DNA of 64,000 nt from Candidatus Uhrbacteria bacterium (GTDB taxonomy: Bacteria; Patescibacteriota; Patescibacteriia; UBA9934; GWF2-40-263). Below, in pieces: positions 3,083 through 63,188 of this stretch. The translations under genes were made by a program, and so were the position numbers. The stretch is taken from NCBI GenBank assembly GCA_016188475.1, contig JACPHT010000006.1, forward strand, positions 2,330-66,329. Direction: 5' to 3'. A model generated the notes under the pieces. It was not told where the DNA came from. It saw only the letters and a list, made by a program, of their open reading frames with translations, and ran no database searches. The first letter of the stretch is position 1. Every line of letters starts with the position of its first letter.

Positions 3083-3115
3083 ATATAAAGCGGGCCTAAG
3101 AAGCCCGTTTTATGT

Positions 3116-3143
3116 TTGACAATTTTGTAAAAAAGTGTAAGAT
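3116..3143 (+). promoter_or_regulatory. candidate sigma-70 promoter TTGACA-16-TAAGAT
   Basis: TTGACA at 3116-3121 and TAAGAT at 3138-3143, upstream of an AAGGGGG SD (3162-3168) and the ATG at 3175. Confidence 0.25.
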
Positions 3144-3174
3144 CATTCGGTCAGCTATGCAAAGGGGGATGATA

Positions 3175-6924: not shown

Positions 6925-7224
6925 ACGAATGTGTTTTGGTTGCTTATTTTGAAACTCGACTTTGTTTCTATGTCTAAATGACAGCGATAGTATAGATTAA
7001 GTCTCTGATTTTAGCAAGGGCTTGTTAAACCCATAAGCAGCCAATGTCCTTGTCTAGAGTTTGATGCTTTGTTATAATCACGTCGTTCTTAATAATGAAC
7101 ATTCGGGGGTTCCGCCAGAGGCGGACTGACCTTTTTTGTCAGAGCTTCAGTGCTGCGCCCGCCTTTGGCGGGGCAGAGCAGTTTCAGCCTTAGGCTGACC
7201 CGCCTTTGGCGGGGGCTGTTGATT

Positions 7225-7473
7225 ATGTCTTATACAATTTATATTCTGCGCAGTCTCAAAAATGAGAAACGATACATTGGTTATACTGGGAAAAGTGTTG
7301 ATGAAAGATTCCATGAACATTTATCCGGTACGAATCAATGGACTCGACAGAACGGTCCGTTCATTTTGATTCATACTGAGTCATTCAATGACAAAGAATC
7401 AGCCATTAAACGTGAACGTTTTCTAAAAAGCGGTCAAGGTCGTAAATGGCTTGATGAAAATATTCGGGGGTAG
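7225..7473 (+). CDS. GIY-YIG nuclease superfamily protein (YhbQ/UPF0213-like)
   Basis: YTIYILRS...RYIGYTGKSVDERFHEHLSG matches the GIY-YIG core. Its stop codon TAG (7471-7473) lies inside the tRNA 5' exon. Confidence 0.7.
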   Translation: MSYTIYILRSLKNEKRYIGYTGKSVDERFHEHLSGTNQWTRQNGPFILIHTESFNDKESAIKRERFLKSGQGRKWLDENIRG

Positions 7474-7782
7474 CTCAGTGGCAGAGCAGTTGGCTGTGAC
7501 CAGGATCAGACGGTCCAAATAGCAGCTTCCGGTGGAAACATCGGATGAAAAATGAGGTGAATTGCTGGAAGTCTTCGATGAAAATATCTTGATAATCAGC
7601 AGCCAAGCCCCGCTACAGCGGGGAAGGTTCAGAGACTATCCGAAAGGAGTACTGTTTCGACTTTGGTTGAAACGGGAAGCGCCTCACGCCCTTTTGGGCG
7701 ATGATATAGTCCACCCCTTTGGGAAACCAGAGGATTATGTGTAACCAATTGGTCGTGGGTTCGAATCCCACCCCCCGAGCCA
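7464..7782 (+). tRNA. tRNA-Asn(GUU) interrupted by a 244-nt group I intron (exons 7464-7497 and 7742-7782; CCA encoded)
   Basis: The exons rebuild a canonical tRNA. Acceptor UCGGGGG/CCCCCGA; D arm GCUC-AGUGGCA-GAGC; anticodon stem GUUGG/CCAAU; loop CUGU|UAA; V loop UGGUC; T arm GUGGG-UUCGAAU-CCCAC; G73; CCA. U1 and G73 match bacterial tRNA-Asn. The alternative splice junction CU|UGUAA would give Thr(UGU). Confidence 0.7.
7498..7741 (+). ncRNA. group I self-splicing intron (IC3-like) in the tRNA anticodon loop
   Basis: P element AATTGCTGGAA at 7560-7570, Q AATCAGCAGC at 7594-7603, R GTTCAGAGACTA at 7627-7638, S GATATAGTCC at 7703-7712. Candidate IGS GCAGCU (7522-7527) pairs with exon GGCUGU (7492-7497) with U.G at the splice site. 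Terminal G is 7741. No ORF inside. Confidence 0.75.
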
Positions 7783-7971
7783 AAAAACAACCATCGTAAG
7801 TAAGATGGTTGTTTTTTGGCTCCGAACCCTGAACGAAATCCGAACTTTTTTTAGCGAAAATCCGAACGCTGAATTTTGAAAAATTTTTAAGCTCGGGCGG
7901 GCAAAAAGGAAGGAGGTTGGGGGGAAGGAATTTTTGCCCGCCCTCGCTTTTCCGCCGCCGCCGAATTTCGT
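7782..7971. repeat. left arm (IR-L) of a ~190-bp near-perfect inverted repeat flanking the 5-kb cassette
   Basis: The reverse complement of 12953-13143 matches this arm with one substitution (ggaaggagg vs ggaagaagg) and one extra A in the A-run. Contains the terminator hairpin and a nested GGGCGGGCAAAAA...TTTTTGCCCGCCC hairpin. Confidence 0.85.
7783..7820 (+). terminator. rho-independent terminator after the tRNA (aacaaccatc-gtaagtaa-gatggttgtt + T6)
   Basis: A perfect 10-bp stem followed by TTTTTT directly after CCA. It forms the outer part of the left inverted repeat. Confidence 0.6.
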
Positions 7972-8049
7972 ATTTCGCTTTGCGAAATGCGCCGCCAAAG
8001 AAGATGTTGCCCTTGCCCCAGCCCTCCCGTGCGCGGGCAACGACAAGGA

Positions 8050-8147
8050 ACTCCCTTTTGTCTTTACGAATCTCAATAAATTTGATAATATAGTAATAAA
8101 TTAAGCAATATAAATCGCTATTACTTTAATTATAGTAATATATTACA
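8050..8147 (+). promoter_or_regulatory. AT-rich promoter/operator region upstream of the XRE gene with repeated TAGTAATA motifs
   Basis: tagtaataaatt...attacttt...tagtaatatattac repeats sit immediately 5' of 8148. Possible C-box-like operator (inference). Confidence 0.3.
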
Positions 8148-13200: not shown

Positions 13201-14067
13201 TTAACCATGCTGATGCAGAACCGCGTATGAAAGACCTGGCATGAGAGATCCGTCATCAATGTCGACAGCGAGCATACCGCCAGCGAAGAGCATTGGATAT
13301 GACGAATCCATATAGTGCCAAGTGAATGGCACAGTCGAGATGTGCGAAGGTACTGACCCGAGCGCGATGCCGTGGATGCCCCAGCGTCCTTCCTCAGCAC
13401 GTGTCCAGTCGAACGCGTCATCCGACTTTTCTATTAGAACACCTTTTGGTGACTTGTTGCGTCTGACAGATCTTTCATCCTCTGATTGGAGAATGAAGTT
13501 GACGAACGTGCTTATCCAACCATTGAAAGTATCAGAGCCAGACTCGGAGCTGAACTTGTAGAGTGACTTCCAAAAGTATTCATCGAGTATTTCGCCACCG
13601 GCTTGATCAACGATCTTTTGTAGAACCGGCAAAAGATGCTTGAAGTAGCGACCAAGCGGACGGGCAAAAACCTCGGAGAGTTGCATCGCTGCGTTCAGGA
13701 CCTTGCGGTAGTCCTCCGGTGTGCCTGCAAGGCGAATATCCGGTATTCCACATGACGTATAGGTACTATAGTCGTAGAACTTCTGCGTCGCGTTCATGAA
13801 CACGACGAGACTTGCCGCATCTGTCTCTGGCGTAGCAGTCGTGAATCCTGGCAACATGTGTTGCATGATACCTGGCGGAACGACATCCTCGAGCTTGGGT
13901 CGGAACAATACGATCGCTTCACCCCATGGACTCTTTGGGTCGCCGTAGCACAGGTTGTCGTGTTGCACGTCTATTTTCACTTTATCGCGCGAACGTGTGA
14001 ACAGGTGAGAGAACTCCTCGGGATTCAGGTTCACGGCTGTCGCGACCTCGTGCGAGATTAGGAACAT
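13201..14067 (-). CDS. hypothetical protein, GC-rich; possibly the C-terminal part of a gene interrupted by an in-frame TGA
   Basis: 288-aa ORF at about 52% GC in a roughly 38% GC genome. ORF 14110..14367 is in the same frame, separated only by a TGA at 14110-14112 plus 14 codons. Confidence 0.5.
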   Translation of the reverse strand: MFLISHEVATAVNLNPEEFSHLFTRSRDKVKIDVQHDNLCYGDPKSPWGEAIVLFRPKLEDVVPPGIMQHMLPGFTTATPETDAASLVVFMNATQKFYDYSTYTSCGIPDIRLAGTPEDYRKVLNAAMQLSEVFARPLGRYFKHLLPVLQKIVDQAGGEILDEYFWKSLYKFSSESGSDTFNGWISTFVNFILQSEDERSVRRNKSPKGVLIEKSDDAFDWTRAEEGRWGIHGIALGSVPSHISTVPFTWHYMDSSYPMLFAGGMLAVDIDDGSLMPGLSYAVLHQHG

Positions 14068-36757: not shown

Positions 36758-37756
36758 TCAGTTGGAGTTTTGTTTTTCAACGACCATCAGTGCGATTGTT
36801 TCTCCAATCGTGAAAGTTAGTGTTCGTTTTTCGCTGTTTTGTTTTTCGGGTCCTTGTTTTGTGGATTCTGGCCAAACATAGACATCACCATCAAGCACTA
36901 GCCTTGTATCAGACATTCTGATTATTGCCGTGCGGATTGGTTGGTTGTAACTCTTGCGCTTGATCCAGAATGGGACAAGTCCGAACCATACAAAAGGTGA
37001 GGCAAGCGCAAGGCTTCGCCAACCTCCCCAGTATGCCGCGCTGTAGTATTCGCCCATGTTTGGAATCCCCCCAAATGGCTGACACGATGCTAGCAGTTTA
37101 GGAATCGTGCTGAACGCGAACCCGACGAATGACTTTTTTGTGCAGATGGCTGTGCCAAGAATCATTTCTCCATCGACTATTTTGAGTCGTCCGTGAAGTT
37201 TGCGAATCGTGTCTGATGCAACAGAAAGTGCCGCCATTATGATGATCTGCAGAACTCTGAAAAATCCACCTTTGCCGACATTCTCATACCACTGCAGAAT
37301 ATCGCTGATAACTCCGCCAGCTACAACTGCGGCATATCGTTTTGTATTCGTGACAGAATCATGCACGCAAACTGGTTGCCAGTTTTTCCAATCGAGTTTG
37401 ATCTTGTTTGAGAAAATCCCTGCAAGATTTTTGATCGGATCTTTGCTTGGCAAACCATGGAATTTAGTCATGTAGCAGAATTGTCCGCCTCCAACAGAGA
37501 TAAGCGCTGGTCTAAGTTCTGGCTGGAGCGCCGCAATCCAGTTGAGCACGTTGTTGAATGTTCCATCGCCACCGACAACGTAAACGAAGTCGACAGTGTG
37601 TTTTTGGGAAAGAGCGTCGAGCGCGCCGATGACTTTATCAGCGCCTGAAATGTCTATGATGTGCGCGTATTTTGAAAATCTGTCGCGCACGAGCTGGCGA
37701 ATGCGACGATTCTGGCGAAGCCGTTTGGCTTCAGGGTTTACTACGATTACACGCAC
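36758..37756 (-). CDS. diacylglycerol-kinase-catalytic-domain lipid kinase (YegS/DagK-like)
   Basis: VVGGDGTF motif. Confidence 0.6.
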   Translation of the reverse strand: MRVIVVNPEAKRLRQNRRIRQLVRDRFSKYAHIIDISGADKVIGALDALSQKHTVDFVYVVGGDGTFNNVLNWIAALQPELRPALISVGGGQFCYMTKFHGLPSKDPIKNLAGIFSNKIKLDWKNWQPVCVHDSVTNTKRYAAVVAGGVISDILQWYENVGKGGFFRVLQIIIMAALSVASDTIRKLHGRLKIVDGEMILGTAICTKKSFVGFAFSTIPKLLASCQPFGGIPNMGEYYSAAYWGGWRSLALASPFVWFGLVPFWIKRKSYNQPIRTAIIRMSDTRLVLDGDVYVWPESTKQGPEKQNSEKRTLTFTIGETIALMVVEKQNSN

Positions 37757-38868: not shown

Positions 38869-38910
38869 AAATGGACAATCAATGTTGTCATCTTGAGCGA
38901 AGGTAAAGTT

Positions 38911-38937
38911 ACAGCCTTCGACTGGCTCAGGCAATAA
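38911..38937. repeat. intergenic palindromic element family 1 (IPE-1), half-site copy
   Basis: ACAGCCTTCGACTGGCTCAGGCAATAA, the reverse complement of the TTATTGCCTGAGCC(T/A)GTCGAAGGCTGT consensus. Confidence 0.6.
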
Positions 38938-38975
38938 CTTTACCGAAGTCGAAAGATCTCGTATATAATGACAAT

Positions 38976-40541
38976 GTGCTCAAACGACTTATAATTTTTT
39001 TATTTTTTGTTGCAGTTCCGTTTGTCACTTCTGCAGCCGAAGAAGCAGAGTTTTTGTCTCCAAAAATTTCAGGAGTTAACTCATCTGTTGTTTGCCCGAC
39101 TGAAGATAATTGTCAGGCGGTTTTTTTAATCAAGGGGAAAAATTTTCTAAACAGCAACGGAAGACCGCTTGTGAACATTGCAGACGAATGGGTTGAAGTT
39201 GTGCGAGCTTCAGATACACAAATTGTTGCGCTTGCTGAACCTGAATTTGTTGGCAAGGTTCCGATGGTTATTGTTGATAAAACATTGCATCGTCCGACAA
39301 TGTCATCAACGGACGGCGTACTAGTAAAAATGTTCGACGAGTCAGTTGATGTAGCGCTTGAAGTGATTGGTCAAACATCAGACGGTTCACGATATATCAC
39401 AGCCGGGCCTCGTTACACAGAACCGCTTCGAGTTTATTATCGCGATAGTTACTGGACTTCTGGAATGATTCTTCTTATCGAGCCGGCGGTTGTTCGCGAT
39501 CAAATTTTGTTGCTTGCGCGAGGAATTGAAAAAGATGGTTCAACACCAAGCGCGATTCCGGTTGATCCAAAAGGAATGACAATGCCGCTTTGGAAAGATC
39601 ATTACGATTCTGGTCCATATTTCATCATGATGGTTTATGATTATGTGAGATGGACCGGTGACACATCAATTCTGGATGAACATGTTGGTGAAAGAACAAT
39701 TCTTGCGACAATGGAAGATGTGCTGTCACATCTTGAAACTCGTGATACAAATAAAAACCTTTTGCCTGAAAAGCCGGCAAATTCATTTCAAGATTGGCTT
39801 GATAATGTTCCGCGTGGTGGGGAAGTGTTGTATGACGAAGTTTTGTATTATCGAGCGCTTCGAAACATGACAGAGCTGGCCGAGTTGGTTGGCAAAACCG
39901 CTCATGCAACAGTTTTTCATCGTCACTCGCTTCTTGTTAGATATCAAATCAACAACACTCTTTGGAATGACGCGAGGGGATATTATTATGAACGTTGCGA
40001 AAATGGAAAATGCGAAGACCGTTTGACAAACGAAATGTCGCTTGCTGTTTTGTATGACGTTGTTTGGCCTGAAAATCGAGAACGTTTGCTAAAAAATTTG
40101 GAGCAGTTGGAAACGAGATATAATTCAAGTTTACTTTATGGTGATTGGGGGGTTGTAAATGTTTTTCCCGCTTACACTTCAACAAAAGCATATTTTTATC
40201 AAAACATGACTGACTGGCCGTTTTTGGACGGTATAAACGCTGGAGCAAGATTGAAATATGGAATCGGCGATTGGTATTATCCGATGACAAATTGGTGGAA
40301 GTTTTTTAATGTTCACAGCGACAAAATTGAAAAGTTGCCGGAGTATGTTTCGCCGATTGATTTTTCAGGTGGAGTTTCTCAAGCATGGTCAGTAAATCCG
40401 ATTGTTTCGTTTGTTCGCTATGGACTTGGAATTGATCCAGCAATAGACGGAACATACACGATTCGACCATCTCCGATCGGTCAGGTTGATTTGAAAAATT
40501 TATCTGTTCGCGGACAAAGAATTTCAGTGAGCGCGAAATAG
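38976..40541 (+). CDS. secreted six-hairpin glycoside-hydrolase-like protein (GH63/GDE/trehalase-like)
   Basis: Signal peptide and N-terminal Ig-like region. Family assignment is by general composition only and is weak. Confidence 0.4.
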   Translation: MLKRLIIFLFFVAVPFVTSAAEEAEFLSPKISGVNSSVVCPTEDNCQAVFLIKGKNFLNSNGRPLVNIADEWVEVVRASDTQIVALAEPEFVGKVPMVIVDKTLHRPTMSSTDGVLVKMFDESVDVALEVIGQTSDGSRYITAGPRYTEPLRVYYRDSYWTSGMILLIEPAVVRDQILLLARGIEKDGSTPSAIPVDPKGMTMPLWKDHYDSGPYFIMMVYDYVRWTGDTSILDEHVGERTILATMEDVLSHLETRDTNKNLLPEKPANSFQDWLDNVPRGGEVLYDEVLYYRALRNMTELAELVGKTAHATVFHRHSLLVRYQINNTLWNDARGYYYERCENGKCEDRLTNEMSLAVLYDVVWPENRERLLKNLEQLETRYNSSLLYGDWGVVNVFPAYTSTKAYFYQNMTDWPFLDGINAGARLKYGIGDWYYPMTNWWKFFNVHSDKIEKLPEYVSPIDFSGGVSQAWSVNPIVSFVRYGLGIDPAIDGTYTIRPSPIGQVDLKNLSVRGQRISVSAK

Positions 40542-40645
40542 TTATTGCCTGAGCCTGCTTGCCGACCATAGCCTCTGGCGAAGGTTGGTCGAAGGCTGTA
40601 ACGCATTGTGAATAGTTATTGCCTGAGCTTGTCGAAGGCCGTACG
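40541..40645. repeat. IPE-1, two tandem copies
   Basis: GTTATTGCCTGAGCCTG...GTCGAAGGCTGTAA at 40541-40599, then AGTTATTGCCTGAGCTTGTCGAAGGCCGTA at 40614-40645. Confidence 0.65.
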
Positions 40646-40657
40646 AACTAATAAAAA

Positions 40658-40688
40658 ACGACTGCCTATTTGGCAGCCGCTTTTTTTA
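40658..40688 (+). terminator. rho-independent terminator (cgactgcc-tattt-ggcagccg + T7)
   Basis: Imperfect stem followed by a T-run, downstream of the glycosidase-like gene. Confidence 0.4.
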
Positions 40689-40837
40689 TACGAATCGCTT
40701 TTTGCTTTCGATTGCTAGCGAGTTGAATCTTTCGATCCTTTTTCCATTGTGTGCGAACTTGTTTTCTTTTGCCTGGCATAGAGTAAAAAAGTGATGAAGT
40801 GATGGAGTAAAGGAGTTAGTTTGTAGCCCACGGCTTT

Positions 40838-40886
40838 TCCGGCCTAAAGGCTGGATCCGGCTCCGCCGGAAGCCGTGGCTGTGTGA
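40838..40886. repeat. intergenic palindromic element family 2 (IPE-2: CCGGCCTAAAGGCCGGATCCGGCTCCGCCGGAA)
   Basis: cacggcttttccggcctaaaggctggatccggctccgccggaagccgtg. Related copies at 46751-46790 and 57571-57607. Confidence 0.55.
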
Positions 40887-40972
40887 AAAGATAATACTTG
40901 ATCGTTCGCTTACCGTCAAATTTAGCAAAAAGATAAGTCAATTTTATATTATTTCTCTGCTCAAATCAACAA

Positions 40973-41130
40973 TTGATCGTCCGTTTCCTCCGTTCGTCGA
41001 CATTCGCAGACGGCCAGTATAGACGTTTGGTAATCATCATCGTTTCTCGCCGTCGAGAAATAAGCCGCCGACGCTTACGTTGGTTTTCATCAACGTCCAC
41101 GGCGGCGGTCAAGAACGGAGGAACCGGACG
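40973..41130. repeat. ~160-nt highly structured element at the edge of GC-rich island A, containing a conserved 75-nt motif
   Basis: Outer arms gatcgtccgtttcctccgttc (40973-40993) and gaacggaggaaccggacgatc (41110-41130) are reverse complements with one mismatch. Inner hairpins tttctcgccgtcgagaaa and gccgccgacg...cgtccacggcggcgg. The core at 41049-41120 recurs at 54955-55030. Confidence 0.5.
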
Positions 41131-41191
41131 ATCATAAATAAAATGAACCTCCGCTGACAGTGTGTCAGACAGAGGTTCGAGAGCGACAGGG

Positions 41192-41479
41192 CTACTCAGC
41201 GAGTTTTGCGTCGTAGCCAGGACAACTGGCGTTCCGGTGGTAGATCGAGTCACACCACTCATTGTGTTCGGCGAGCTGTTTCGCTAGCACCTCGGGCGGG
41301 ACGATCACTTGTCCGTGCTTCGGACATCCCACGTTCTGGTGGTAGATCTGGTCACACCACGCCAGATGGGACACCTCGTCCAACTCTTCGTCAGTCGGGG
41401 TTGTCGAAATCTTTCCACACGCGAGAACCACGACCAGCACCATCAGAAGTGCCAGGACAAGATTCATCATTCCCTTCAT
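41192..41479 (-). CDS. small Cys-rich lipoprotein with an internal duplication (GC-rich island A)
   Basis: Lipobox LVVVLAC. Duplicated WCDQIYHQNVGCP / WCDSIYHRNASCP. Confidence 0.4.
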   Translation of the reverse strand: MKGMMNLVLALLMVLVVVLACGKISTTPTDEELDEVSHLAWCDQIYHQNVGCPKHGQVIVPPEVLAKQLAEHNEWCDSIYHRNASCPGYDAKLAE

Positions 41480-41595
41480 CTTTTGGCCCTCCTTTTGAGC
41501 CTAACTTACCGTCAAATAGTACCACATTTTAGCACTTTTGTCAAGGATTTGAAAGAAAAAACTCTCCGCACAAAAGTATTGTTTGGAGAGCGAGA

Positions 41596-42978
41596 TTATT
41601 CATCGGATACTGGAAAGATCGTTGAAAGCATGATTATTGTCTGCCGGAGATTTTCCGGAGGTACGTTTGCGAATTCAGCGATGGCATTTATGAAAAGAGC
41701 ACGATATTCCGACGGTATTTGCACGATAGATGCCGCGACTTTGAGCGTTGAAGCCACCCATGGGTATTCGTCAGTTACCAGCCGTATGTCGCTCTGACCA
41801 ATCTCTTGACCCGACACACTTGTGGCATCTGCACCATCATCATCCACTTCAACGTCAGTCTCGGCTTCGGACCCAGTTTCGAATTCTGTCTCCTCGTTCT
41901 CTTCGTCGCCATCTGGTGCTGGCTTGGCTTGATCGCCAGCTTCGCCGTCTTGGGTGTTGTGGGTTTCGTCCTCTTTCGGTCTTATCCTCTTTTCATTAGG
42001 ACCATATTCACTCATGTCTCTGGTCCACTTGTTCCCTGCGATCAGGCCTTCGTCAACCATACTTTTGAATAACTGCCGTGCGTAGAATGGAGTGCTTACA
42101 CCTATAATTTTTGCAAGTTCTCCTGCATCATTGAGGTCAAACTCGTATTTGAGTTTCTCTTCCGTTGTATCCCCGGGAGTGTTCTTCCATGCTGTACCAA
42201 GCCGTGTCCAATATCCAGAACGATGGACTGTTGCATTTTGTGAATCCCTTTTTTTATCTTTTCTTTCTGTTGGTGCTGGTGGTGCACTAGCCTCTGATCT
42301 TAAAAGGTCTATCGCCTTTTGCAGTAGCTTGTAGCGGGTCTCGCCGCCATCGCTCGTGCGCTCAAACCAACCTCTTCTGGAAGCATTATTCAAACGATAG
42401 ATTGCATCGATCCGTGTGGTCACTTTTTCAGAATTTGAGTTGATAATCCTAGCGATGACTCGTTCTTCTTCGGCCCAACCTGCTTCATCAGCGCATTTCT
42501 TTATTGCCGAGGCCAGCTCAATTTGCACAGCATTGGATTTTTCTCTCATGTTCGGTTCCCCTTTCCCCAGTTTAGACGGTTGTTCATCCGGTTGAGTATT
42601 TTCATTTGGTGGATCATCAACTGGCGGTGTTTCTTCATCTGGCTCTGATCCGGATTCTTGTTCAGACGCTGGCTCTTGAGCTGGTTCTGATTCTTGCGTT
42701 TGTTCATGCGCTCGCTCTGGAGGTGGCGGCGGCGTAGGTTTGCGCTTTACCGAAGGCGAGGCTTCTTCCGACATCTCGTCAAGTCCATCTGCTGAAATTG
42801 CAAACTCGATTCTATTACGTCTGCCTTGCGGACAACGCCAGCACGCCGTTCTGCGTTTTTCAAATGCATTGGCATCACAGTAATCATCAATGCATTTTTG
42901 CATAGATTGCTGTTTTCTTCTCGCTCTACAATAGAAATTGTTCTCAAGAACGCTTGGCCCGTCTGGCACGGTCTGCAT
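41596..42978 (-). CDS. hypothetical protein with N-terminal Cys cluster, acidic Pro-rich linkers and two wHTH-like regions (GC-rich island A)
   Basis: CIDDYCDANAFEKRRTACWRC (CxxxC...CxxC) and a long D/E/P-rich low-complexity stretch. No recognised family. Confidence 0.45.
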   Translation of the reverse strand: MQTVPDGPSVLENNFYCRARRKQQSMQKCIDDYCDANAFEKRRTACWRCPQGRRNRIEFAISADGLDEMSEEASPSVKRKPTPPPPPERAHEQTQESEPAQEPASEQESGSEPDEETPPVDDPPNENTQPDEQPSKLGKGEPNMREKSNAVQIELASAIKKCADEAGWAEEERVIARIINSNSEKVTTRIDAIYRLNNASRRGWFERTSDGGETRYKLLQKAIDLLRSEASAPPAPTERKDKKRDSQNATVHRSGYWTRLGTAWKNTPGDTTEEKLKYEFDLNDAGELAKIIGVSTPFYARQLFKSMVDEGLIAGNKWTRDMSEYGPNEKRIRPKEDETHNTQDGEAGDQAKPAPDGDEENEETEFETGSEAETDVEVDDDGADATSVSGQEIGQSDIRLVTDEYPWVASTLKVAASIVQIPSEYRALFINAIAEFANVPPENLRQTIIMLSTIFPVSDE

Positions 42979-43096
42979 GCATACATCCTTTCCAATGGTA
43001 TTGCTGACCTATGAGTTGATGTAAGGAACGAACATTATTTGAAACTAGCATCCTATACGGTTTATTGTCAATGTCACTCCATCGCTTCTTCACTCT

Positions 43097-43546
43097 GTGC
43101 TATACTTTCCTTGTATGTTTGATATTGCCAGTCTTCTTTTTTCAGATTCAAGCGTAGTTTTGTTTGGCGCCACACTTTTTGTATTCGGCGCCATACTTTG
43201 TTTAACGCTTTTGCTTAAACAAAATCCAAAACCAGTTCGAACGCTTATTGTTCTTCTTATAATTTTGTTTTTTCTTTTGCTTGGAATGGTAAGTTTGGAT
43301 TTGTTCGGAAGACGCACAGTGTATGCGTTTGAAAATTACGCGTCGTTTTCAGAACTTTTATCAACTCATCGCTTGCTTATTATTCAGCTTCCGTTTGTTT
43401 TGATCGTAAGCTCTATCGTTACATTGATCGTGTACGGCGAAAAAATTGCAAACGATCACGCGAAGGAATATCGCTATGCAATTATTGCTTCTGTTTGGAT
43501 CACGTTTTTAACGTTTTTGTTAATCGGTCTTGAATCAATGTTATAA
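43097..43546 (+). CDS. integral membrane protein
   Basis: Four hydrophobic helices. Confidence 0.4.
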   Translation: MLYFPCMFDIASLLFSDSSVVLFGATLFVFGAILCLTLLLKQNPKPVRTLIVLLIILFFLLLGMVSLDLFGRRTVYAFENYASFSELLSTHRLLIIQLPFVLIVSSIVTLIVYGEKIANDHAKEYRYAIIASVWITFLTFLLIGLESML

Positions 43547-43551
43547 AAATC

Positions 43552-43615
43552 GTTATTGCCTGAGCCTGTCGAAGGCTGTATTCAATTTTATCCATTCGAT
43601 GAGCTCACGGAATAA
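43552..43615. repeat. IPE-1 copy (imperfect palindrome)
   Basis: GTTATTGCCTGAGCCTGTCGAAGGCTGTA, followed by the degenerate inverted half CCATTCGATGAGCTCACGGAATAA. Confidence 0.65.
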
Positions 43616-43983: not shown

Positions 43984-44079
43984 TGGATGTGGTGAATTTG
44001 TTTATCACACTTAACTACCGATCGGTAGTTAAGTGTGATTCCTTGTATTTTTTTTCAGGATCGGTTAAGTTTTCAGTCT

Positions 44080-45543
44080 ATGGATATTTCAGTTAAAAAA
44101 GGGAAAATTTTTGAACAAATTTGCGATGTTTTGATTCTTTTCATTTTTCAGGGTTCAGAGCATTCAGACGATTTCATTTCAACAGTTCTTAAAGAGGAAA
44201 AGTTCAAAGGCAAACTTTGCCAGTCTGTTTTAATTCGAACCGATGGTAAACTTCCAGCAAAACGAGTTTTGGTTGTTGGACTTGGAAAAAAAGAAGAGTT
44301 TGATCTTCAAGCTTTGCGACGCGCTTCTGCTGCTGCATATTTGACTGCAAAAGCGATTGAACCAAAAACAATAGCATTAGAGTTTTTTAGCGCGCCAAAT
44401 TTTAACGCAAAACAAGTTGCACAAGCGGTTGTTGAAAGCATCCGTCTTTCTGATTACAGTTTTACAAAATACAAAAAAGAAAATGGAAACGGAAAAAATA
44501 AAACGCAAAGTTTTGTTTTTGTTACAGACGATGGACGAATACTTCGACAAGCACAGCAAGGAATTGAACACGGAGAACTTGCGGCGCGCGCAACAATTTT
44601 TACACGCGATCTTGTTAACACTCCAGCGCAAGATATGCGTCCGATTGATCTTGTTGAATCTGCAAAATCAATCGCAAAAGGGAATGGCGCGATTCGTGTT
44701 CGTGTGTTTGATAAAGCTCAACTTGAAAAAATGGGAGCTGGAGGAATTTTGGGAATTGCAAAAGGCTCTGATGATCCGCCGTATTTAGTTCATTTAACAT
44801 ATCGTCCAAAGAAAAAAACAAAAAAGAAAATTGCGATTGTTGGAAAGGGAATAACGTTTGACTCTGGTGGTTTGTCTCTCAAACCAGCAGCCAGCATGTT
44901 TACAATGAAAATTGACATGGCAGGCGCGGCTGATGTTTTAGGTTTGTTTTCCGTGATAGATGAGATCGCGCCAGCAGTAGAAGTTCATGGAATTTTTGCC
45001 GCAGTTGAACACATGCCGTCAGGGTGCGCTGTTCGTCCTGGTGATATTTTGCGCGCTATGAACGGAAAAACAATGGAGATATTAAATACAGACGCGGAAG
45101 GTCGCGTGATTTTGGCTGATTCGCTTTTGTATGCTGTTAAACAAAAACCAGACATGATTATTGATCTAGCTACTTTGACTGGCGCTTGCATGGTTGCGCT
45201 TGGAGATGAAATTACAGGTGTTTTATCAAACGACGCAAAACTCGCGAATCGTGTTTTGACTGCCGCGGCTGGAGCCGAAGAAAAAATGTGGGAACTTCCT
45301 CTTGAAAAAAATTACAAACAATTTTTAAAATCAGATGTTGCTGATTTGAAAAATATCGGTGGAAAGTATGGAGATGTTATTTCAGCCGGTTTGTTTTTAG
45401 AAGAGTTTGTGAATAAAACTCCTTGGGCACATTTGGATATTGCTGGTCCATGTTTTGCAGAACGTGATTTTGATGAATATACAAAAAAAGGCGCGACCGG
45501 TCACGGTGTACGCACCTTGATTGAATTTTTGAAAGCGTTCTAG
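44080..45543 (+). CDS. pepA: leucyl aminopeptidase (M17 family)
   Basis: VGKGITFDSGG and NTDAEGRV(IL)ADSL signature motifs. Start set at MDISV. Confidence 0.85.
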   Translation: MDISVKKGKIFEQICDVLILFIFQGSEHSDDFISTVLKEEKFKGKLCQSVLIRTDGKLPAKRVLVVGLGKKEEFDLQALRRASAAAYLTAKAIEPKTIALEFFSAPNFNAKQVAQAVVESIRLSDYSFTKYKKENGNGKNKTQSFVFVTDDGRILRQAQQGIEHGELAARATIFTRDLVNTPAQDMRPIDLVESAKSIAKGNGAIRVRVFDKAQLEKMGAGGILGIAKGSDDPPYLVHLTYRPKKKTKKKIAIVGKGITFDSGGLSLKPAASMFTMKIDMAGAADVLGLFSVIDEIAPAVEVHGIFAAVEHMPSGCAVRPGDILRAMNGKTMEILNTDAEGRVILADSLLYAVKQKPDMIIDLATLTGACMVALGDEITGVLSNDAKLANRVLTAAAGAEEKMWELPLEKNYKQFLKSDVADLKNIGGKYGDVISAGLFLEEFVNKTPWAHLDIAGPCFAERDFDEYTKKGATGHGVRTLIEFLKAF

Positions 45544-46705: not shown

Positions 46706-46966
46706 AGAAGTTAGAGAAGTTAAAGAAGCTGAAGAAGTTGTAGTGGAAGTCTTTTCCAGCCTAAAGGCCGGATCCGGCTCTGCCGGAAACCTTTCAGAAT
46801 AAGGAAATGGAAAAAATTGTTGACAACTTTTCACAGGGGTGAAAAAACGTCAACACTTCAGACCGAGCTTCAACTTTATATGTCGCTATGTTGTAGAAGA
46901 AGGTTTTTCCTTGTAAAAGTTAGAGAAGTTAGAGAAGCTGGAGAAGTTAGAGAAGCTGGAGAGGCT
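46706..46966. repeat. repeat-rich intergenic region: tandem AGTTAGAGAAGCT-like 13-mers flanking an IPE-2 copy
   Basis: aagaagttagagaagttaaagaagctgaagaagttg at 46706-46745. IPE-2 at 46751-46790. agttagagaagttagagaagctggagaagttagagaagctggagagg at 46916-46965. Confidence 0.5.
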
Positions 46967-48620: not shown

Positions 48621-48685
48621 AATATTCCCTGAGCCTGTCGAAGGAATAAAATTTATTACTGCCTTCGACTAGCTCAGGCAATAAA
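48621..48685. repeat. IPE-1 copy (hairpin)
   Basis: ATTCCCTGAGCCTGTCGAAGG at 48624-48644 pairs with GCCTTCGACTAGCTCAGGCAATAA at 48661-48684. Confidence 0.65.
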
Positions 48686-51547: not shown

Positions 51548-51574
51548 GCGACAGCAAAGGATCTTGAATAAACA

Positions 51575-51676
51575 AAGATCGTGATGCTACATCTCCGGGC
51601 CAACGCCGTGCCTGCCTTTGGCAGGGACTCCTCGCCGTTGTTCCCTGCGACGTAGCATCACGCTCTTTGTTTTTTT
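51575..51676 (+). terminator. long structured hairpin terminator with a conserved core (...CCAACG...CGCCGTTGTTC...)
   Basis: 18-bp outer stem aaagatcgtgatgctacatc / gacgtagcatcacgctcttt, followed by T7. The core is shared with 63226-63310. Confidence 0.5.
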
Positions 51677-51757
51677 GATATTCATTTTTCCGAGTGGAAT
51701 TGAAAGAGTTGTTGGAAACAAAAAGCAGTAATGAAAGATTCACTACTGCAAAGAGAG

Positions 51758-52780
51758 CTAGCCGACATAGCGACGCTTAAATTCATTTGGGTGTGATGAG
51801 TTTAACCCGGCCTCAATGTCTTTGATGCACTGTCGCAGGAGTGCTCCAATGATTCTACCCTTGGCTTCGTAAACTCCACCTAGGTAGCTGTCCCGGAGTT
51901 GCGCAGCCATCGAGATTCTGCTCGCGTCTTCACGAAGGTAAGCATCTAGTAATGCTGTATAGATCCCTTTCCACTGCCTGGTCTTGACGCATTCGCGCAT
52001 CTCGCGTGTGATTGGATTTCCCAAGGCAGCGATCTTTCTTACCTTGATTGCTGCGATTAGTTCAGTTAGTCCATTTCTTTCTATTGAGTCCTCGGTCATT
52101 TTCGCTATGTACGCATCTGGATCATCAAAGAATTCGACCAACTGGGTTGGATTAAGCCTTTGACGTCCTTGTTGTCCATCGTCTCGATCTCCACTGCTCT
52201 TTTGTACGTCTCTTCGTTCGCGCCCCGTATCGTTTCTACGGCTCATCTCGTCTCCCTGAGGTTGTGATGCAGGTTGTTTCGATTGTACACCAGCAGGCGT
52301 GGCTGGAAGAATCGGTGTTGTGCGAGGCGGTTGTGCAACTTGCACCGGGCCGCTCAACATCCGACTTGCCCCTGATTGGACACTGACTGTTGCTGTGTCA
52401 GCAACCGGTTCTACGGCCGGTTGAACAACATCGATCGGTTCAGCCGGCACAGCTGCTTTCTGTTTGTGATTTTCCGCGATTTCTGCCAGGCCGAGTTTTC
52501 GCGGATCCTCGTCTTTTAGTTCGGCGACGTATGCATCAGAATCAATACAATACTGCAGAAGTGCATTTTGCACTCGGATACAGTACGCCTTACCTTCGTC
52601 TGATACGTAATTGGAAGAAAGAATTTCCTCCAACTCCTCATCTGTTGGTTCGATCCTTGAGATAAGAATGTTGCGAAGCTCGTCTGTTGGCTCGTCATCG
52701 CCGAAGAAGGCGAAGACGGCGTCAAGATAAGTAGGCATTTTTTCCTCCCTCGGCTCAAAACCGAGATTGAAACCTACCAT
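51758..52780 (-). CDS. hypothetical protein (GC-rich island B), acidic with P/Q-rich linker
   Basis: 340-aa ORF at about 55% GC. No recognised motifs. True start may be MPTYLD (52738). Confidence 0.4.
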   Translation of the reverse strand: MVGFNLGFEPREEKMPTYLDAVFAFFGDDEPTDELRNILISRIEPTDEELEEILSSNYVSDEGKAYCIRVQNALLQYCIDSDAYVAELKDEDPRKLGLAEIAENHKQKAAVPAEPIDVVQPAVEPVADTATVSVQSGASRMLSGPVQVAQPPRTTPILPATPAGVQSKQPASQPQGDEMSRRNDTGRERRDVQKSSGDRDDGQQGRQRLNPTQLVEFFDDPDAYIAKMTEDSIERNGLTELIAAIKVRKIAALGNPITREMRECVKTRQWKGIYTALLDAYLREDASRISMAAQLRDSYLGGVYEAKGRIIGALLRQCIKDIEAGLNSSHPNEFKRRYVG

Positions 52781-52869
52781 AAATTAGTCAGAATGTCAAG
52801 CAATCCTTGACATTTTTTTGATTTTCTGCTAAATTCATTCTCTGGCAAAAGCCAGTTTGAAAGGGAAAA

Positions 52870-54411
52870 ATGGAACGAAAGCAATTGTTGCTTCAGGAAT
52901 CTGGTTTGATCGTCAAGGGCGGTGGTGCTACGAAACCGCCGACCGCGGCATCAAAGGGCGAAATCGCACAGCCGTCTCGTTTCACCCAGATGCTCGCGAT
53001 CTGGGGCGAGCTCATTGATATCGCGGTTCTGACAGACAACAGGCGTCGTGTTCCGATCGAAGTGCGCAAGCGCGAAATGACGCGTCGATTCGTCCGCGAT
53101 CCGCGCGATCCGCAAGTTCCTCTTCTCGTTAAAGCGATGATCTTCGCTGAAAACGTGACTCGATTCAATCGGGAAACCAAGGAGCATGAACTTCAACCCG
53201 GCATTGGACTCGGGTACAAGGCAGAGATTCAGGTTTCTGTCAACAAAGGAAGTGACGAGACAGTCAAGGCTGTTCCGCACATTCTCGTTGACGGAGCCGG
53301 CGGAATGATTCCGTACGGCACATTCGAGGAGTCTGGTGGAAAGACGGTCGTGAACGCGCGCGAACATTTTTGCATGGTTCTGTGGCCAATGAAGAAAGGT
53401 CAGCCGTTCAGACTCCTGCCGCTCGGTCTCGCGTCTGCTTCACGGCTCGATATGTGGAACCGCGTGGCACAGGGTCTTCCAGGCCGCGGTCTTCCGACAA
53501 TCGAGCCAATCCGCCATAACCTTCTTGCCAAGGACGGTGCTCGCTACCTCGTGTACACGCCGCCAGGAATGTGGCAGTTCGATGGCGAAGAAGGCAAGGC
53601 GAGCTACCACTACGGCCACATCTGTGGCCAGACAGCTCGCGTTATCGAAAAGGGCGGATTTCCGCCGTATGACGACGAAGAAAACTGCACGTTCTCCGAA
53701 CAGAGAGTGTTTCTCGTTGAGCTTGGCGAGCGTTCGATCGGCCTGCAATACGTGGGTCGGAAGGGCAAGGTCAAGCTTCTCGAAGGTACTATCGATCTCG
53801 GTCAATCTCTCGCGGTTGAACCGTTCGAAGCGCTCGGAGTGTCGGTTCTCACAGCCAATCCGAGCAAGCAGTCCCGAACAGCTTTCGAGCTGGCAGGGCG
53901 TGGTGCGTTCACCCTGGACAATCCGCTCTTCGCCTACGCCGTCAGGATAGGACTGGTTGATCCAGTTGTGCTCGAAGATACACAGTCTGTACGTTCTTCA
54001 CTCAATCGGCTTGCGAGTCTCGTTGTTTCAACTCTTCGCGATCAGCTCGATGACATCAAACGGCGAGTTGTGGAACAGCTCTGTCGTGATCTGCTCCCGG
54101 ATTCTGAAATCGTTCTGGATGGCAAGTCGGCCGAAGAAGTTTGGCACCGCAATGGCGGCGAAGATTTCCTCGCAAAATGGATCAACGAGCGGATCGAAGG
54201 CGACTTCGACTGGAGCTCGTGGGTTCACCGCGGAGTTCGGATGGAGCTCCTGAAGAGAATCTCCGAACGCGCTCAGAATGTCGGAACTCCTCCCGCTCTT
54301 CCTGTGACCTTTGTCAATGCGGCTCCTATCGTAGCAGAAGTTCTTGGCCTGGTACCCACGCCAGCCAAGCGCATTCGCAAGCCTCGCGCTTCGAAGCCGG
54401 CACAGGCCTAG
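52870..54411 (+). CDS. hypothetical protein (GC-rich island B), 513 aa
   Basis: Long ORF at about 57% GC. No recognised family. Followed by the hairpin gtagtgatttctttcactac. Confidence 0.45.
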   Translation: MERKQLLLQESGLIVKGGGATKPPTAASKGEIAQPSRFTQMLAIWGELIDIAVLTDNRRRVPIEVRKREMTRRFVRDPRDPQVPLLVKAMIFAENVTRFNRETKEHELQPGIGLGYKAEIQVSVNKGSDETVKAVPHILVDGAGGMIPYGTFEESGGKTVVNAREHFCMVLWPMKKGQPFRLLPLGLASASRLDMWNRVAQGLPGRGLPTIEPIRHNLLAKDGARYLVYTPPGMWQFDGEEGKASYHYGHICGQTARVIEKGGFPPYDDEENCTFSEQRVFLVELGERSIGLQYVGRKGKVKLLEGTIDLGQSLAVEPFEALGVSVLTANPSKQSRTAFELAGRGAFTLDNPLFAYAVRIGLVDPVVLEDTQSVRSSLNRLASLVVSTLRDQLDDIKRRVVEQLCRDLLPDSEIVLDGKSAEEVWHRNGGEDFLAKWINERIEGDFDWSSWVHRGVRMELLKRISERAQNVGTPPALPVTFVNAAPIVAEVLGLVPTPAKRIRKPRASKPAQA

Positions 54412-54494
54412 TTCTCTCGCAGTAGTGATTTCTTTCACTACTGTTTTTTTGTTTTTAATTGACAATTCTTGGTTGAGGGCTATTGAAATATTTT

Positions 54495-54572
54495 TATTAT
54501 TGCCTGAGCCTGTCGAAGACTGTAGGCAAACAAGCCAAATTTTACCCATTCGACAGGCTCAGGGAATAAAAT
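54495..54572. repeat. IPE-1 copy (long hairpin)
   Basis: TATTATTGCCTGAGCCTGTCGAAGACTGTAGGC pairs with CCCATTCGACAGGCTCAGGGAATAAAA. Confidence 0.65.
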
Positions 54573-54954
54573 TTGGCTTTTGTAAGCCTCTCGCTACCAG
54601 GTAGCGAGAAGATATATTCTAATTCACCAATCACACAATTTTTTTTAGAAACAACAGATATTCGTAATCTATTATATGAGCAGTTGCATCATGTTGGAAG
54701 GAGTCGAGGAGGAGTAAAGAAGCCAACTGCTTGGCTTCGTACCTCCGAGACGGGTTGGACGATGTCTGGCTGAAAGCCAGACCGTACAACACCTACGGCG
54801 AAGAGTCCGTTGGCCCGGAGACACGGTTCGATTGTCATATACTCGTCAACCAGTCTGTTGGTTCCATATTCAAATCACATATAAAATTGTTTAGACTCTC
54901 TGTTCGCCGACATCCGGAGCCGACCTGTACAAACACTTGTTAACTACGTCGATT

Positions 54955-55030
54955 CACGTCGGCGAGGACTAAGCCGCCGCCACTAACTCTGGTTGTCATA
55001 AACGTCCACGGCGGCGGTCAAGAACAGATA
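54955..55030. repeat. conserved structured 75-nt motif (second copy), at the right edge of GC-rich island B
   Basis: cgtcggcgaggactaaGCCGCCGCC...aaACGTCCACGGCGGCGGTCAAGAAC. The 3' arm is identical to 41092-41117; the 5' arm differs. Confidence 0.5.
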
Positions 55031-55149
55031 GTCTAAACGATTTTTCCACCTTCTTGACCCTCTTTTCAAAAAACTGTACACTATCGGCGCCTTTTAAAGT
55101 ATTACGCAACGCAGAGATTGCTTCGCTTCGCTCGCAATGACATTGGTTT

Positions 55150-62105: not shown

Positions 62106-63188
62106 ATGTCTATGCCAAATGGTCTTGATCTGCACACAATGCCAATCGCTCAATTGCGATCTTGGCTTCTTGAGCACAATAGGCAACAGAGCGAGATTTT
62201 CTGTGAGCCTGACACCAAAGGGCTTCGCATGCAACATCGAGGCATGCATCCAACGGAATTCATGGCTTTGAAGTGCATGGACGGCCGTCTCAATCTGCCT
62301 CTTATCGCGCAGATTCCGCTTGGAATCGTTCAGCCATTGCGCGGACTTGGTGGAAAATTCGATCTTGGTTGGCCATACCTCGGTGAGGTTGTGACCGACT
62401 GGGTTCGTTACTCCATGGGAAAAGGTCGAGACTGTATTATCCTTGTCACATACCACTGGTCTCGCGGCGACAAGCATCGCGGTTGCCGTGGCTTTGGTTA
62501 TGATGAGGAAGCGGCACGAACTTACACTGTCGAATTTACCGCGCAAGTTGAGAGGATGTTCGGAAAACGACATACGACCGTATACCCAGTTCGGCTCGGC
62601 GTCGAAACCGACGAAGACGCTTTGGTTTTTCACGGTGCCAATGGAAAGGTCTTGGATCTTTCAAAGGCAGATGGATATACCGAAGCTGACCTACGTGTTG
62701 CGCTCATGGATCTATTCCCAGACATGAAACAACGCATGCTGGAGGATTTGCTTCCTCTTGCAGTTGGCAATGTTCGACACATCGCGGAAGTGCGAAAATC
62801 GAATCGGCCAATTGAGGAAGCAGAACACCGTGAGCGAATCATTGGCGCTGGAAGAGGGTTTGATTGGTTGCATATCTTGAACCTCGCGTTCTTGGTTGGC
62901 CCATTTGATCCTGATCTTGCAAAGCCGATTCGAACAGCGGCGAAACTCATTGCTGATAATCTCAAAGCTGGTCGTGTGCCAGATGATGGGATTGTTCTGC
63001 TCACTTGTGCTCCTTATCGTGAGGAAGCCGGATACGATGTTCCGCGCGCTACAGAGAAAGTCATTATGCTTTCAAGGTTTGCTTTGAGTGTGATCGAGGA
63101 CGAGGTTCCAGATCTGAAGGGTCGAGTTCACATGATCACTGGAATTGTGAACCAACACACGCGTAAACTAGATGAGGTCAGTCTCTAG
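62106..63188 (+). CDS. hypothetical protein (GC-rich island C), 360 aa
   Basis: About 52% GC. CMDGR and HRGCRGFG motifs are faintly reminiscent of beta-carbonic-anhydrase CxDxR/HxxCG, but do not match. Confidence 0.45.
   Translation: MSMPNGLDLHTMPIAQLRSWLLEHNRQQSEIFCEPDTKGLRMQHRGMHPTEFMALKCMDGRLNLPLIAQIPLGIVQPLRGLGGKFDLGWPYLGEVVTDWVRYSMGKGRDCIILVTYHWSRGDKHRGCRGFGYDEEAARTYTVEFTAQVERMFGKRHTTVYPVRLGVETDEDALVFHGANGKVLDLSKADGYTEADLRVALMDLFPDMKQRMLEDLLPLAVGNVRHIAEVRKSNRPIEEAEHRERIIGAGRGFDWLHILNLAFLVGPFDPDLAKPIRTAAKLIADNLKAGRVPDDGIVLLTCAPYREEAGYDVPRATEKVIMLSRFALSVIEDEVPDLKGRVHMITGIVNQHTRKLDEVSL

Follow-up and report, generated by a model that had tools for sequence, protein, structure and literature searches.

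Positions 40950-43060 of a 64,000-nucleotide (nt) stretch from a Candidatus Uhrbacteria metagenome-assembled genome (MAG; contig JACPHT010000006.1), hereafter the window, form a GC-rich region that encodes a 95-residue lipoprotein and a 460-residue protein and contains a 160-nt structured element. By comparing the region with related contigs (L001, L007 and L093 at this locus), we find that it is probably a plastic accessory hotspot of the Uhrbacteria chromosome, built up of three independent layers. The first layer would be the gene of a small extracytoplasmic lipoprotein anchored in the membrane, a gene that is ancestral here, evolves fast and uses GC-rich codons in every lineage seen. The second would be a segment of promoter, open reading frame (ORF) and terminator encoding a putative modular nucleic-acid-binding protein, with a basic four-cysteine (C4) zinc module and winged-helix-like domains, most likely gained by recombination of imported Patescibacteria-type DNA without a dedicated recombinase. 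The third would consist of GC-rich structured repeats (the 160-nt element, REP-like units and a nested hairpin) that entered the gaps between terminators and promoters as separate insertions. The features concerned are as follows.

40824-40880: 57-nt nested GC-rich hairpin, absent in L001 (fold -31.7 kcal/mol, z = -4.3)
40920-40972: AT-rich sequence of ~53 nt upstream of element copy A, inserted together with it
40973-41134, plus strand: 160-nt structured element, copy A, a three-way junction and window-specific insertion
41135-41180, minus strand: intrinsic terminator of the lipoprotein gene (hairpin of -24.1 kcal/mol plus U-rich tail), conserved in both L001 and L093
41192-41479, minus strand: gene of the 95-residue lipoprotein (signal peptide, lipobox, two repeats), ancestral and fast-evolving
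41516-41544, minus strand: lipoprotein promoter TTGACA-17-TG-TACTAT, 10 of 12 matches in the promoter scan, conserved in L001 and L093
41545-43074, minus strand: lineage-specific 1.53-kb cassette of promoter, ORF and terminator around the 460-residue gene
41561-41591, minus strand: terminator hairpin of the 460-residue gene (41550-41591 with its U-tract)
41596-42978, minus strand: gene of the 460-residue modular protein (predicted C4 zinc module and winged-helix-like domains)
43050-43077, minus strand: promoter-like site of the 460-residue gene, from the promoter scan
54880-55047, plus strand: element copy B, upstream of the atp operon promoter, with an orthologous copy in L052

Insertions and deletions around the lipoprotein gene

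The lipoprotein locus was compared with its three syntenic relatives, L001, L007 and L093; a further contig, L052, is the syntenic relative for a second GC-rich stretch of the window (island C; listed at 51560-55030 in an earlier note, which was made from the sequence alone) and for element copy B. In L001, a contig from a JGI metagenome whose flanks are 82-88% identical to the window, the gene order is that of the window and runs from a glycoside hydrolase through a 37-residue ORF, the lipoprotein and two membrane proteins to an M17 aminopeptidase. Where L001 has 72 nt, the window has 40793-41134; what is added is the 160-nt element with ~53 nt of AT-rich sequence upstream of it and, as a separate piece, the nested 57-nt hairpin. 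Window 41545-43074 replaces about 105 nt, which in L001 hold a REP-like hairpin (blastn and alignment, the cassette borders being placed by eye from the sequences plus blastn). The lipoprotein gene, with promoter and terminator, lies between these two insertions or deletions (indels) and is conserved in all three relatives; its promoter marks the left edge of the cassette. The element is missing at this site from all three relatives, and the 460-residue gene is missing from L001. The lipoprotein gene thus keeps its place where the 460-residue gene is missing (L001) and where the element is missing (all three), which points to an ancestral gene surrounded by no fewer than three independent indels, and what the earlier note had taken for one island comes apart into the lipoprotein gene, the 460-residue cassette and the element with its hairpin.

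The other marks of a genomic island were sought as well. The block is not gained or lost as a whole between the relatives, as the lipoprotein gene is kept in L001, L007 and L093. The composition does deviate (48.4% GC against 40.9% for the window), the 460-residue gene deviating only mildly. ORF domain searches and a tRNA scan of the 64 kb revealed no integrase or transposase, no tRNA and no flanking direct repeats; the only repeat that flanks the 1.53-kb segment is the 7-nt TTGTCAA, which in the sequence corresponds to the -35 boxes of two adjacent promoters, and the longest direct repeats found by a repeat search of the window lie elsewhere and do not flank the island. Nothing indicating a phage, plasmid or defence origin emerged from tblastn against phages and plasmids, PHROGs, PADLOC, pattern scans of IMG/VR or a fold search of BFVD. 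The earlier idea of a family of selfish elements without a canonical recombinase is thus not borne out, given the lack of any mobility, phage or plasmid signal and the conservation of the island C genes in L052. Of the proposed horizontal acquisition, the part that holds is the presence/absence polymorphism of the 460-residue gene, which L001 lacks at ~85% identity; acquisition as a single block does not.

Composition shifts could also arise from an assembly or binning chimera, in which foreign GC-rich DNA was fused to a contig of the candidate phyla radiation (CPR), and short-read assemblies do break at two places with REP-like repeats, 40537-40643 and 43547-43580. We consider the chance of this vanishingly small. 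The Logan per-run contigs L095, L005 and L006 are 100% identical to window 40572-43582, 40572-42309 and 40572-41673, and all end within REP-like repeats (breaks at 40572 and 43582). These three independent per-run assemblies exclude a chimeric join inside the region; moreover, L001 shares the flanking gene order, and the lipoprotein gene has a matching context in L001, L007 and L093. The flanking genes are ordinary chromosomal ones (histidine kinase, DAGK-like kinase, VKOR, RskA-like protein, MetRS, TatD, AhpC, SOD and the atp operon), the GC-rich region itself sitting between conserved glycoside hydrolase and M17 aminopeptidase genes.

38976-40541: six-hairpin glycoside hydrolase gene
44035-45543: M17 aminopeptidase gene, with two small membrane protein genes on the side of the GC-rich region

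Base composition and its persistence

The region has a GC content of 48.4%, compared to 40.9% for the window and a mean of 40.8% (standard deviation (sd) 3.8%) for same-sized windows, only 4% of which reach this value. The sharp compositional shift described earlier is therefore a genuine anomaly but not an unbroken island: in a 200-nt profile there are two humps, one of 52-58% at 41000-41500 and one of 46-52% over the 460-residue gene, and at 41400-41700, between the two genes, the GC content is back to 40-42%. The enrichment reported as 52-57% in a background of ~38% is too high for most of the region: values of 52-57% are confined to about 41000-41500, and the background is 40-41%. The first hump is made up of the structured element (54% GC) and the lipoprotein gene (about 56%); the 460-residue gene has about 48%.

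Codon usage separates the two genes further. Among the 44 genes of the window, the GC content of third codon positions (GC3) has a median of 0.32 (sd 0.10), and the lipoprotein gene, at 0.698, has the highest value of all; its GC content of 0.560 exceeds the 0.427 expected from its amino acids and the host codons by +0.133, or about 9 sd, taking the background sd of this excess, 0.015, as the measure, and its codon bias B is 0.90. For the 460-residue gene, the corresponding values are a GC3 of 0.408 and a GC content of 0.480 compared to 0.446, an excess of +0.034 (about 2.3 sd), so that about half of its enrichment reflects amino-acid composition and about half codon choice. The lipoprotein family, in turn, is persistently GC-rich: its homologues have a GC3 of 0.66-0.73 in four low-GC genomes, where the neighbouring genes have 0.30-0.43, and at its fourfold-degenerate sites, where the GC content (GC4) is 0.57-0.82 throughout, the syntenic relatives diverge by 47-63% and an unlinked copy in L002 by 81%. 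High GC3 and GC4 in spite of such divergence mark a lasting property of the family, not a fresh import. For comparison, housekeeping genes of the window differ from those of L001 and L052 at 33-47% of fourfold sites, and their GC4 stays at about 0.22-0.33.

These data bear directly on the proposal of a single island that was horizontally acquired from a high-GC donor and carried both genes. In its favour, GC is raised over about 2.1 kb, neither gene belongs to a known family, L001 lacks the 460-residue gene, and stand-alone homologues of the N-terminal module of the 460-residue protein occur in contigs of 72-73% GC and in Myxococcales. We nevertheless regard it as very improbable and, judged by synteny, as largely refuted: besides the lipoprotein gene keeping its place in three relatives without the 460-residue gene (L001) or the element (all), the GC content falls to background between the genes, integrase, tRNA and direct repeats beyond the 7-nt TTGTCAA are lacking, and a stand-alone paralogue of the module is present in the same MAG. 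A high-GC donor in particular fits poorly with a 460-residue gene whose GC3 is only 0.41 and half of whose excess stems from its amino acids, and with a lipoprotein family that is GC-rich throughout.

Comparable GC-rich stretches elsewhere in the window had been noted before, and such stretches are indeed present, including two that had not been listed (3112-3930 and 36758-37756). GC3 is elevated (0.47-0.58) at 3112-3930, 13201-14067, 36758-37756 and 62106-63188, which encode a CDP-alcohol phosphatidyltransferase, a DUF4419 protein, a DAGK-like kinase and a CsoSCA-like protein, respectively. The gene of the DAGK-like kinase is kept at 88-89% in L001. Not all such genes are ORFans. Island C (51758-54411) corresponds to L052 1501-4275, where two GC-rich ORFans of 340 and 513 residues are retained in synteny. 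They are the fastest-evolving genes of L052, with 64% and 77% identity of their proteins to L052 compared to 83-98% for the neighbours. The 340-residue protein has a weak PADLOC match to ZorF/DUF2894 (E = 1.7e-4), and blastp detects no similarity between the ORFans of the present region and those of island C. The possibility that the GC-rich patches are hidden rRNA, tRNA or known non-coding RNA was rejected, as the sole Rfam match is a group I intron at 7410-7733 and ARAGORN gives none.

GC-richness here appears to mark particular fast-evolving gene families over long periods, and not specifically recent import. One explanation would be that it owes nothing to transfer but is maintained in fast-evolving surface and regulatory families, by GC-biased gene conversion at recombination hotspots or by selection on codons or mRNA. 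Lipoprotein genes with a GC3 of 0.66-0.73 in four hosts, including two pairs that differ at 54% and 81% of fourfold sites and are nevertheless GC-rich on both sides, fit this idea, as do the structural plasticity of the locus and the fact that the GC-rich genes are the fastest-evolving of their neighbourhoods. Two relatives of the 460-residue protein, P0048 and P0062, behave alike: their genes have 56-59% GC, a GC3 of 0.60-0.68 and a GC4 of 0.65-0.67, next to a citrate-lyase-like gene with 40-41% GC and a GC3 of 0.39-0.41. On the other hand, at about 50% fourfold divergence an old import from a source with a GC4 of at least 0.8 would still look GC-rich, and the 460-residue gene, at a GC3 of 0.41, lies far below its relatives. 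We therefore consider maintenance a possible but doubtful explanation. Whatever the cause, GC-rich patches in these genomes are unreliable as indicators of recent transfer, some being ancestral genes with GC-rich silent sites and others structured repeats.

The 460-residue protein

The 460-residue ORF is identical to the NCBI protein HYV69_01500 (P0001) of the Candidatus Uhrbacteria MAG. Together with the promoter-like site, a ribosome-binding site ahead of the ORF and the terminator hairpin, it makes the 1.53-kb segment what reads as a complete expression unit. As stated earlier, both this gene and that of the lipoprotein (95 residues) are on the minus strand and lack recognisable family motifs, neither protein having a match in Pfam, NCBIfam, PHROGs or PADLOC. 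A word-indexed search with the 460-residue protein returned only itself, while an exhaustive HMMER search returned 75 relatives among 1.84 billion representatives, mostly of the N-terminal module.

The protein begins with a predicted C4 zinc module (residues 8-62), followed by an acidic, proline-rich linker, two winged-helix-like segments (144-230 and 256-321), a second acidic linker and a C-terminal helical domain (395-454). A cysteine cluster of the form CxxxC...CxxC had been described for it; the cluster is there (C17, C29, C34, C46 and C49), but its spacings are C-x4-C and C-x2-C, and the family as a whole keeps only C17, C29, C46 and C49 without exception. Most relatives of the module (about 70) are proteins of 60-90 residues that match residues 8-62, with the consensus FYCRxRRR...KCLDDYxDANAF..RR.ACWRCPQGxxNR and four invariant cysteines. 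AlphaFold2 models the module with a predicted local distance difference test score (pLDDT) of 92-96, and it has no Pfam model and no relative in the PDB. Stand-alone copies are found in contigs of 72-73% GC, in a Myxococcales MAG and, as HYV69_01100, in the same Uhrbacteria MAG. Homology also supports a longer ORF than annotated: the start of HYV69_01500 appears to belong 25 codons further upstream, at 42978, because the NCBI start at M26 drops C17, the predicted first zinc ligand.

In the AlphaFold2 model, the remainder of the protein alternates between disordered stretches (about 65-143, 236-254 and 316-394) and helical domains (144-230, 256-321 and 395-454). The D/E/P-rich linkers and two winged-helix-like segments of the earlier note thus agree with the predicted disorder and helical domains, the winged-helix assignment itself resting on sub-threshold matches. 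Residues 234-456 are shared with only four proteins, P0048 and P0062 (both from Magasanikbacteria), P0018 and P0014, through the segment R.(R)LAW.NTPG.T..EK...F......L.KI.G......A.......(D/E)(E/G)L...W..DMS.Y and then the C-terminal helical domain. This segment reads as a helix-turn-helix with a wing, and its sub-threshold matches are to HTH_45 (E = 0.011, with P0048) and the ArsR-type YgaV (E = 0.44). Foldseek searches of PDB and BFVD with the 460-residue protein yielded nothing, and no relatives were found among phages, plasmids or IMG/VR.

Taken together, the sequence and the models suggest that the 460-residue protein is most likely a modular zinc-dependent nucleic-acid-binding protein with a role in regulation or transcription or in the handling of DNA. 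It resembles winged-helix factors of the ArsR/MarR type and factors that combine a zinc ribbon with a winged helix, such as archaeal TFE, in its predicted helix-turn-helix-wing segments with the signature GL..s...a..l...L..eGLI and, for the TFE-like factors, in a small basic Cys4 module predicted to be suited to zinc and nucleic acid. It differs from winged-helix factors in lacking a significant sequence or fold match, in its long acidic and proline-rich linkers and in its separate C-terminal helical domain. What appears to be new is the predicted zinc module of ~55 residues, which stands alone in many bacteria and, in Uhr- and Magasanikbacteria, is joined to arrays of winged-helix-like domains.

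The genomic surroundings of the relatives offer some hints. P0048 and P0062 occupy a conserved position beside an ATP-citrate-lyase-like gene. In L087 (1338-3880), two adjacent GC-rich paralogues of the winged-helix family, of 346 and 483 residues, lie beside the citrate-lyase-like gene; as L008 has a single copy (P0048) at this position, the pair indicates a tandem duplication in one lineage. P0052, an 807-residue protein of Magasanikbacteria, combines the zinc module with a long region without Pfam domain and is encoded (L091 8001-14226) between secDF and a pair of genes for a DUF8128 protein and a TrwB/VirD4-like ATPase. The same pair is found in L002 (2037-8264), with a lipoprotein homologue about 2 kb downstream. 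Judging from gene order, secDF, P0052 and the DUF8128 and ATPase genes, with the L002 lipoprotein homologue nearby, may constitute a functional neighbourhood.

The lipoprotein and its family

The N-terminus of the translated 95-residue protein, MKGMMNLVLALLMVLVVVLAC followed by GK, contains the lipobox VLAC and is shared by P0004, P0010 and P0011. The lipobox consensus of bacterial lipoproteins is [LVI][ASTVI][GAS]C, with which VLAC agrees, and AlphaFold2 places a helix at residues 3-22; the signal peptide was read by eye. In this N-terminal signal peptide, and in the V-L-A-C lipobox followed by Gly-Lys, the protein is like other bacterial lipoproteins (substrates of Lgt and LspA), from which it differs in a mature part that consists of an uncatalogued repeat without fold match. 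The repeat, WCDxIYHxNxxCPxHG...PPEVLA, occurs twice here and two to four times among homologues; its W, C, I, H, N, C, P and G are strictly or almost strictly conserved. AlphaFold2 predicts a set of helical hairpins (pLDDT 84 overall, >90 at residues 40-90), for which the PDB holds no fold match.

Each repeat has two cysteines and up to two histidines, and the gene of a VKOR-type disulfide-forming enzyme lies 3 kb from that of the lipoprotein. For these reasons, the mature protein is probably an extracytoplasmic module that is stabilised by disulfides or binds metal. Homologues are confined to 12 clusters among 5.8 billion proteins, and the lipoprotein is thus not a core CPR gene; according to the homologue searches, neither of the two proteins belongs to the widespread core CPR genes, as which the earlier note would have given up the idea of an imported island. 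The gene is evolving fast, with 60-67% identity of the protein to the L001 copy compared to 79-94% for neighbouring proteins. This Cys/His-repeat lipoprotein family is, like the zinc module, an uncatalogued one.

The 160-nt structured element

The earlier note had placed a 160-nt structured element at 40973-41130 and had it bounding the island on the left. The element is real and extends to 41134: copy A has a minimum free energy of -80 to -83 kcal/mol and folds far better than shuffled sequences on both strands (z = -8.2). Copy B is 77.5% identical, with a compensated outer stem, and a covariance model (R1) scores copy A with 184.5 bits and copy B with 183.8 bits. Scanned with R1, the window gave just these two, and L001, L002, L008 and L087 gave no copy; copy B has an ortholog in L052 (5317-5485) with compensatory differences. 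A scan of public contigs with a shared 20-mer returned 13 true copies and many chance matches in high-GC genomes, bringing the total to 15 copies, two in the window and 13 elsewhere. The contigs that carry the 13 true copies are CPR-like and, with one exception, have a GC content of 45% or less (overall range 38-53%). They fall into two length classes, of about 160 nt and, with an expanded arm, of 195-250 nt.

The fold is conserved by compensation. Across eight short copies, 95.9% of the cells are paired, and double changes occur in 17 of the 46 pairs, compared to 8.5 +/- 1.8 in shuffles (none of 500 reaching 17) and 2-6 when the partners are slid. On the window's plus strand there are 12 G-U cells and no A-C cells, which indicates that the plus strand is the one that folds, as RNA or single-stranded DNA. 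The termini GATCGT...ACGATC are kept in most copies, and the 5' core CTCTGTTCGCNGACATYCG is conserved. Typically, a copy starts a few nt past a terminator and ends 5-20 nt ahead of a TTGAC -35 box, its orientation relative to the neighbouring gene being inconsistent. In Rfam, the element has no match at gathering score; in a search at E <= 10 with copies A and B and four other loci, the best was Ms_IGR-4, whose 24 bits fall short of its gathering score of 55. No copy was found in IMG/VR. A covarying structured intergenic repeat of 160-250 nt outside Rfam is, in our view, the chief novelty that remains of the region.

Several known types of sequence were considered and dropped. Integron attC sites are two-arm hairpins of 57-141 nt with R''/L''-L'/R' boxes, which form same-orientation arrays next to intI; the element is a solitary three-way junction of 160-250 nt in inconsistent orientation, and the window holds no intI-like gene. 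A retron msr/msd, a riboswitch or a 5' leader was rejected because there is no reverse transcriptase nearby and the copies lie upstream of promoters and downstream of terminators.

Closer relatives are the REP/BIME and MITE-like repeats (ERIC, Correia/NEMIS, RUP and BOX), with which the element shares being multi-copy, non-coding, GC-rich and strongly folded, its location between terminators and promoters, insertion polymorphism in close relatives, and terminal inverted repeats. In line with a MITE, there are 15 dispersed non-coding copies, one of which, copy A, is lacking in L001, L007 and L093, and the termini GATCGT...ACGATC form inverted repeats; the adjacent stem of ~10 bp varies with compensation, which is unusual for a MITE. 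No consistently duplicated flank was seen, and no transposase, which was sought in the ORF lists near the copies only. What sets the element apart from the REP and MITE-like families is its three-way junction with a conserved core, its covarying outer stem and wobble pairs on one strand, as well as the lack of an observed target-site duplication; no RAYT or parent transposase was found either.

It is conceivable that the element is a new mobile cassette without recombinase, or an attC-like site, that brings GC-rich ORFans into CPR genomes, the present region and island C being two examples. Both window copies do touch GC-rich gene blocks, and the element is dispersed, insertion-polymorphic and folded in a strand-specific manner. 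In L054, two inverted copies (435-628, plus strand, and 3349-3600, minus strand) flank four co-directional genes over about 2.7 kb, like a composite transposon, an arrangement that would also suit the idea. We nevertheless hold it to be quite unlikely. A GC-rich ORF adjoins only ~4 of 13 independent copies, about the share that chance would give (~28%), so that the element does not bound an island as had been proposed, and its position here is either a coincidence or the outcome of a common preference for intergenic gaps that tolerate insertions. In addition, the orientation to the neighbouring gene is inconsistent, each island has one copy and none at its other end, the lipoprotein gene occurs without the element in L001, L007 and L093, L052 has stably kept both copy B and the island C genes, and neither a target-site duplication nor an IMG/VR copy was seen.

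A further speculation, which we rate as unlikely but somewhat less so, is that the element is a so far undescribed mobile element of the class ABY1 and related Patescibacteria that folds strand-specifically as RNA or single-stranded DNA and inserts precisely between terminators and promoters. Together with the GC-rich families, it may then reflect an unrecognised turnover of cassettes in which the C4-zinc/winged-helix proteins could have a part as DNA-handling factors; P0052, one of these proteins, is encoded beside the TrwB/VirD4-like ATPase.

Genome plasticity at the locus

Several observations weigh against the layered hotspot that we prefer. The 460-residue indel may also be a deletion in the relatives, and only L001 is clearly without the gene; L093 has just 56 nt upstream of the promoter, and these are unlike the window sequence. 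The winged-helix domains have sub-threshold matches only, their helical domains reach a pLDDT of 66-85, and the best Foldseek hit in PDB has E = 0.8. Since the collection of element copies was seeded with an exact 20-mer, the conservation of the 3' core is partly by construction. Finally, repeated transfer from a GC-rich pool, incomplete amelioration, selection and GC-biased gene conversion are all candidates for the cause of the persistent GC3-richness.

Horizontal gene transfer and small genomic islands have been reported for groundwater MAGs, with exchange mostly between Patescibacteria (PMC12455944). The present locus is like these islands in having a compositionally deviant, strain-variable accessory gene and genes of unknown function in a streamlined CPR genome; it is unlike them in that there are no integrase, tRNA or direct repeats, the pieces are independent, and the most GC-rich gene is ancestral. 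The hotspot as we read it matches the frequent small-scale exchange published for groundwater Patescibacteria (PMC12455944), that is, ordinary genome plasticity.

Other repeats and small features

The spacers on either side of the region hold further small features.

40537-40643, plus strand: two REP-like units (AATAGTTATTGCCTGAGC(C/T)TG...GTCGAAGGC), right after the stop codon of the glycoside hydrolase; assemblies break at 40572
40666-40779, minus strand: very basic 37-residue ORF (MPGKRKQVRTQWKKDRKIQLASNRKQKAIRIKKAAAK), with a promoter at 40891-40919 (TTGACG-17-TATTAT) and a terminator hairpin at 40653-40690
43547-43580, plus strand: REP-like unit after the gene of a 149-residue membrane protein; an independent assembly ends at 43582

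More REP-like copies are located at 38910-38939, 48657-48684 and 54497-54569 (units at 54497 and 54549). Units of this kind (...TTGCCTGAGCTTGTCGAAGGC...) directly follow stop codons, singly or as inverted pairs, and short-read assemblies break exactly there. The nested 57-nt hairpin has a second, 92% identical copy at 46751-46788 and looks as if one hairpin had gone into the loop of another, older one; L093 (about 800-830) has the short outer form only.

The 37-residue ORF has 88-94% nucleotide identity in L001, L007 and L093 and is the best-conserved part of the spacer between hydrolase and lipoprotein; JGI calls a gene at the matching place in L001, and a Pfam search with the first 31 residues found none. 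A small repeat family, GGTTGCCGGCAACC...CCTCCCCTTGGTAAGGGGAGG, occurs in L093 (about 725-775), in L085 upstream of 1004 and in L052 upstream of 5322. In L093, this small palindromic repeat sits at the very site of the window's 160-nt element, which suggests that the gap between terminator and promoter is a preferred place of insertion.

Farther away, the group I intron at 7410-7733 (RF00028, 83 bits) abuts an ORF for a GIY-YIG nuclease at 7150-7473 (Pfam E = 1.8e-14). ARAGORN calls no tRNA in the whole 64-kb window. Translations of minus-strand ORFs at 7630-8076 hold the strings GGIRTHD and WDSNPRP, which are typical of tRNA-like DNA, and the locus may be an intron-split tRNA or another gene hosting an intron.

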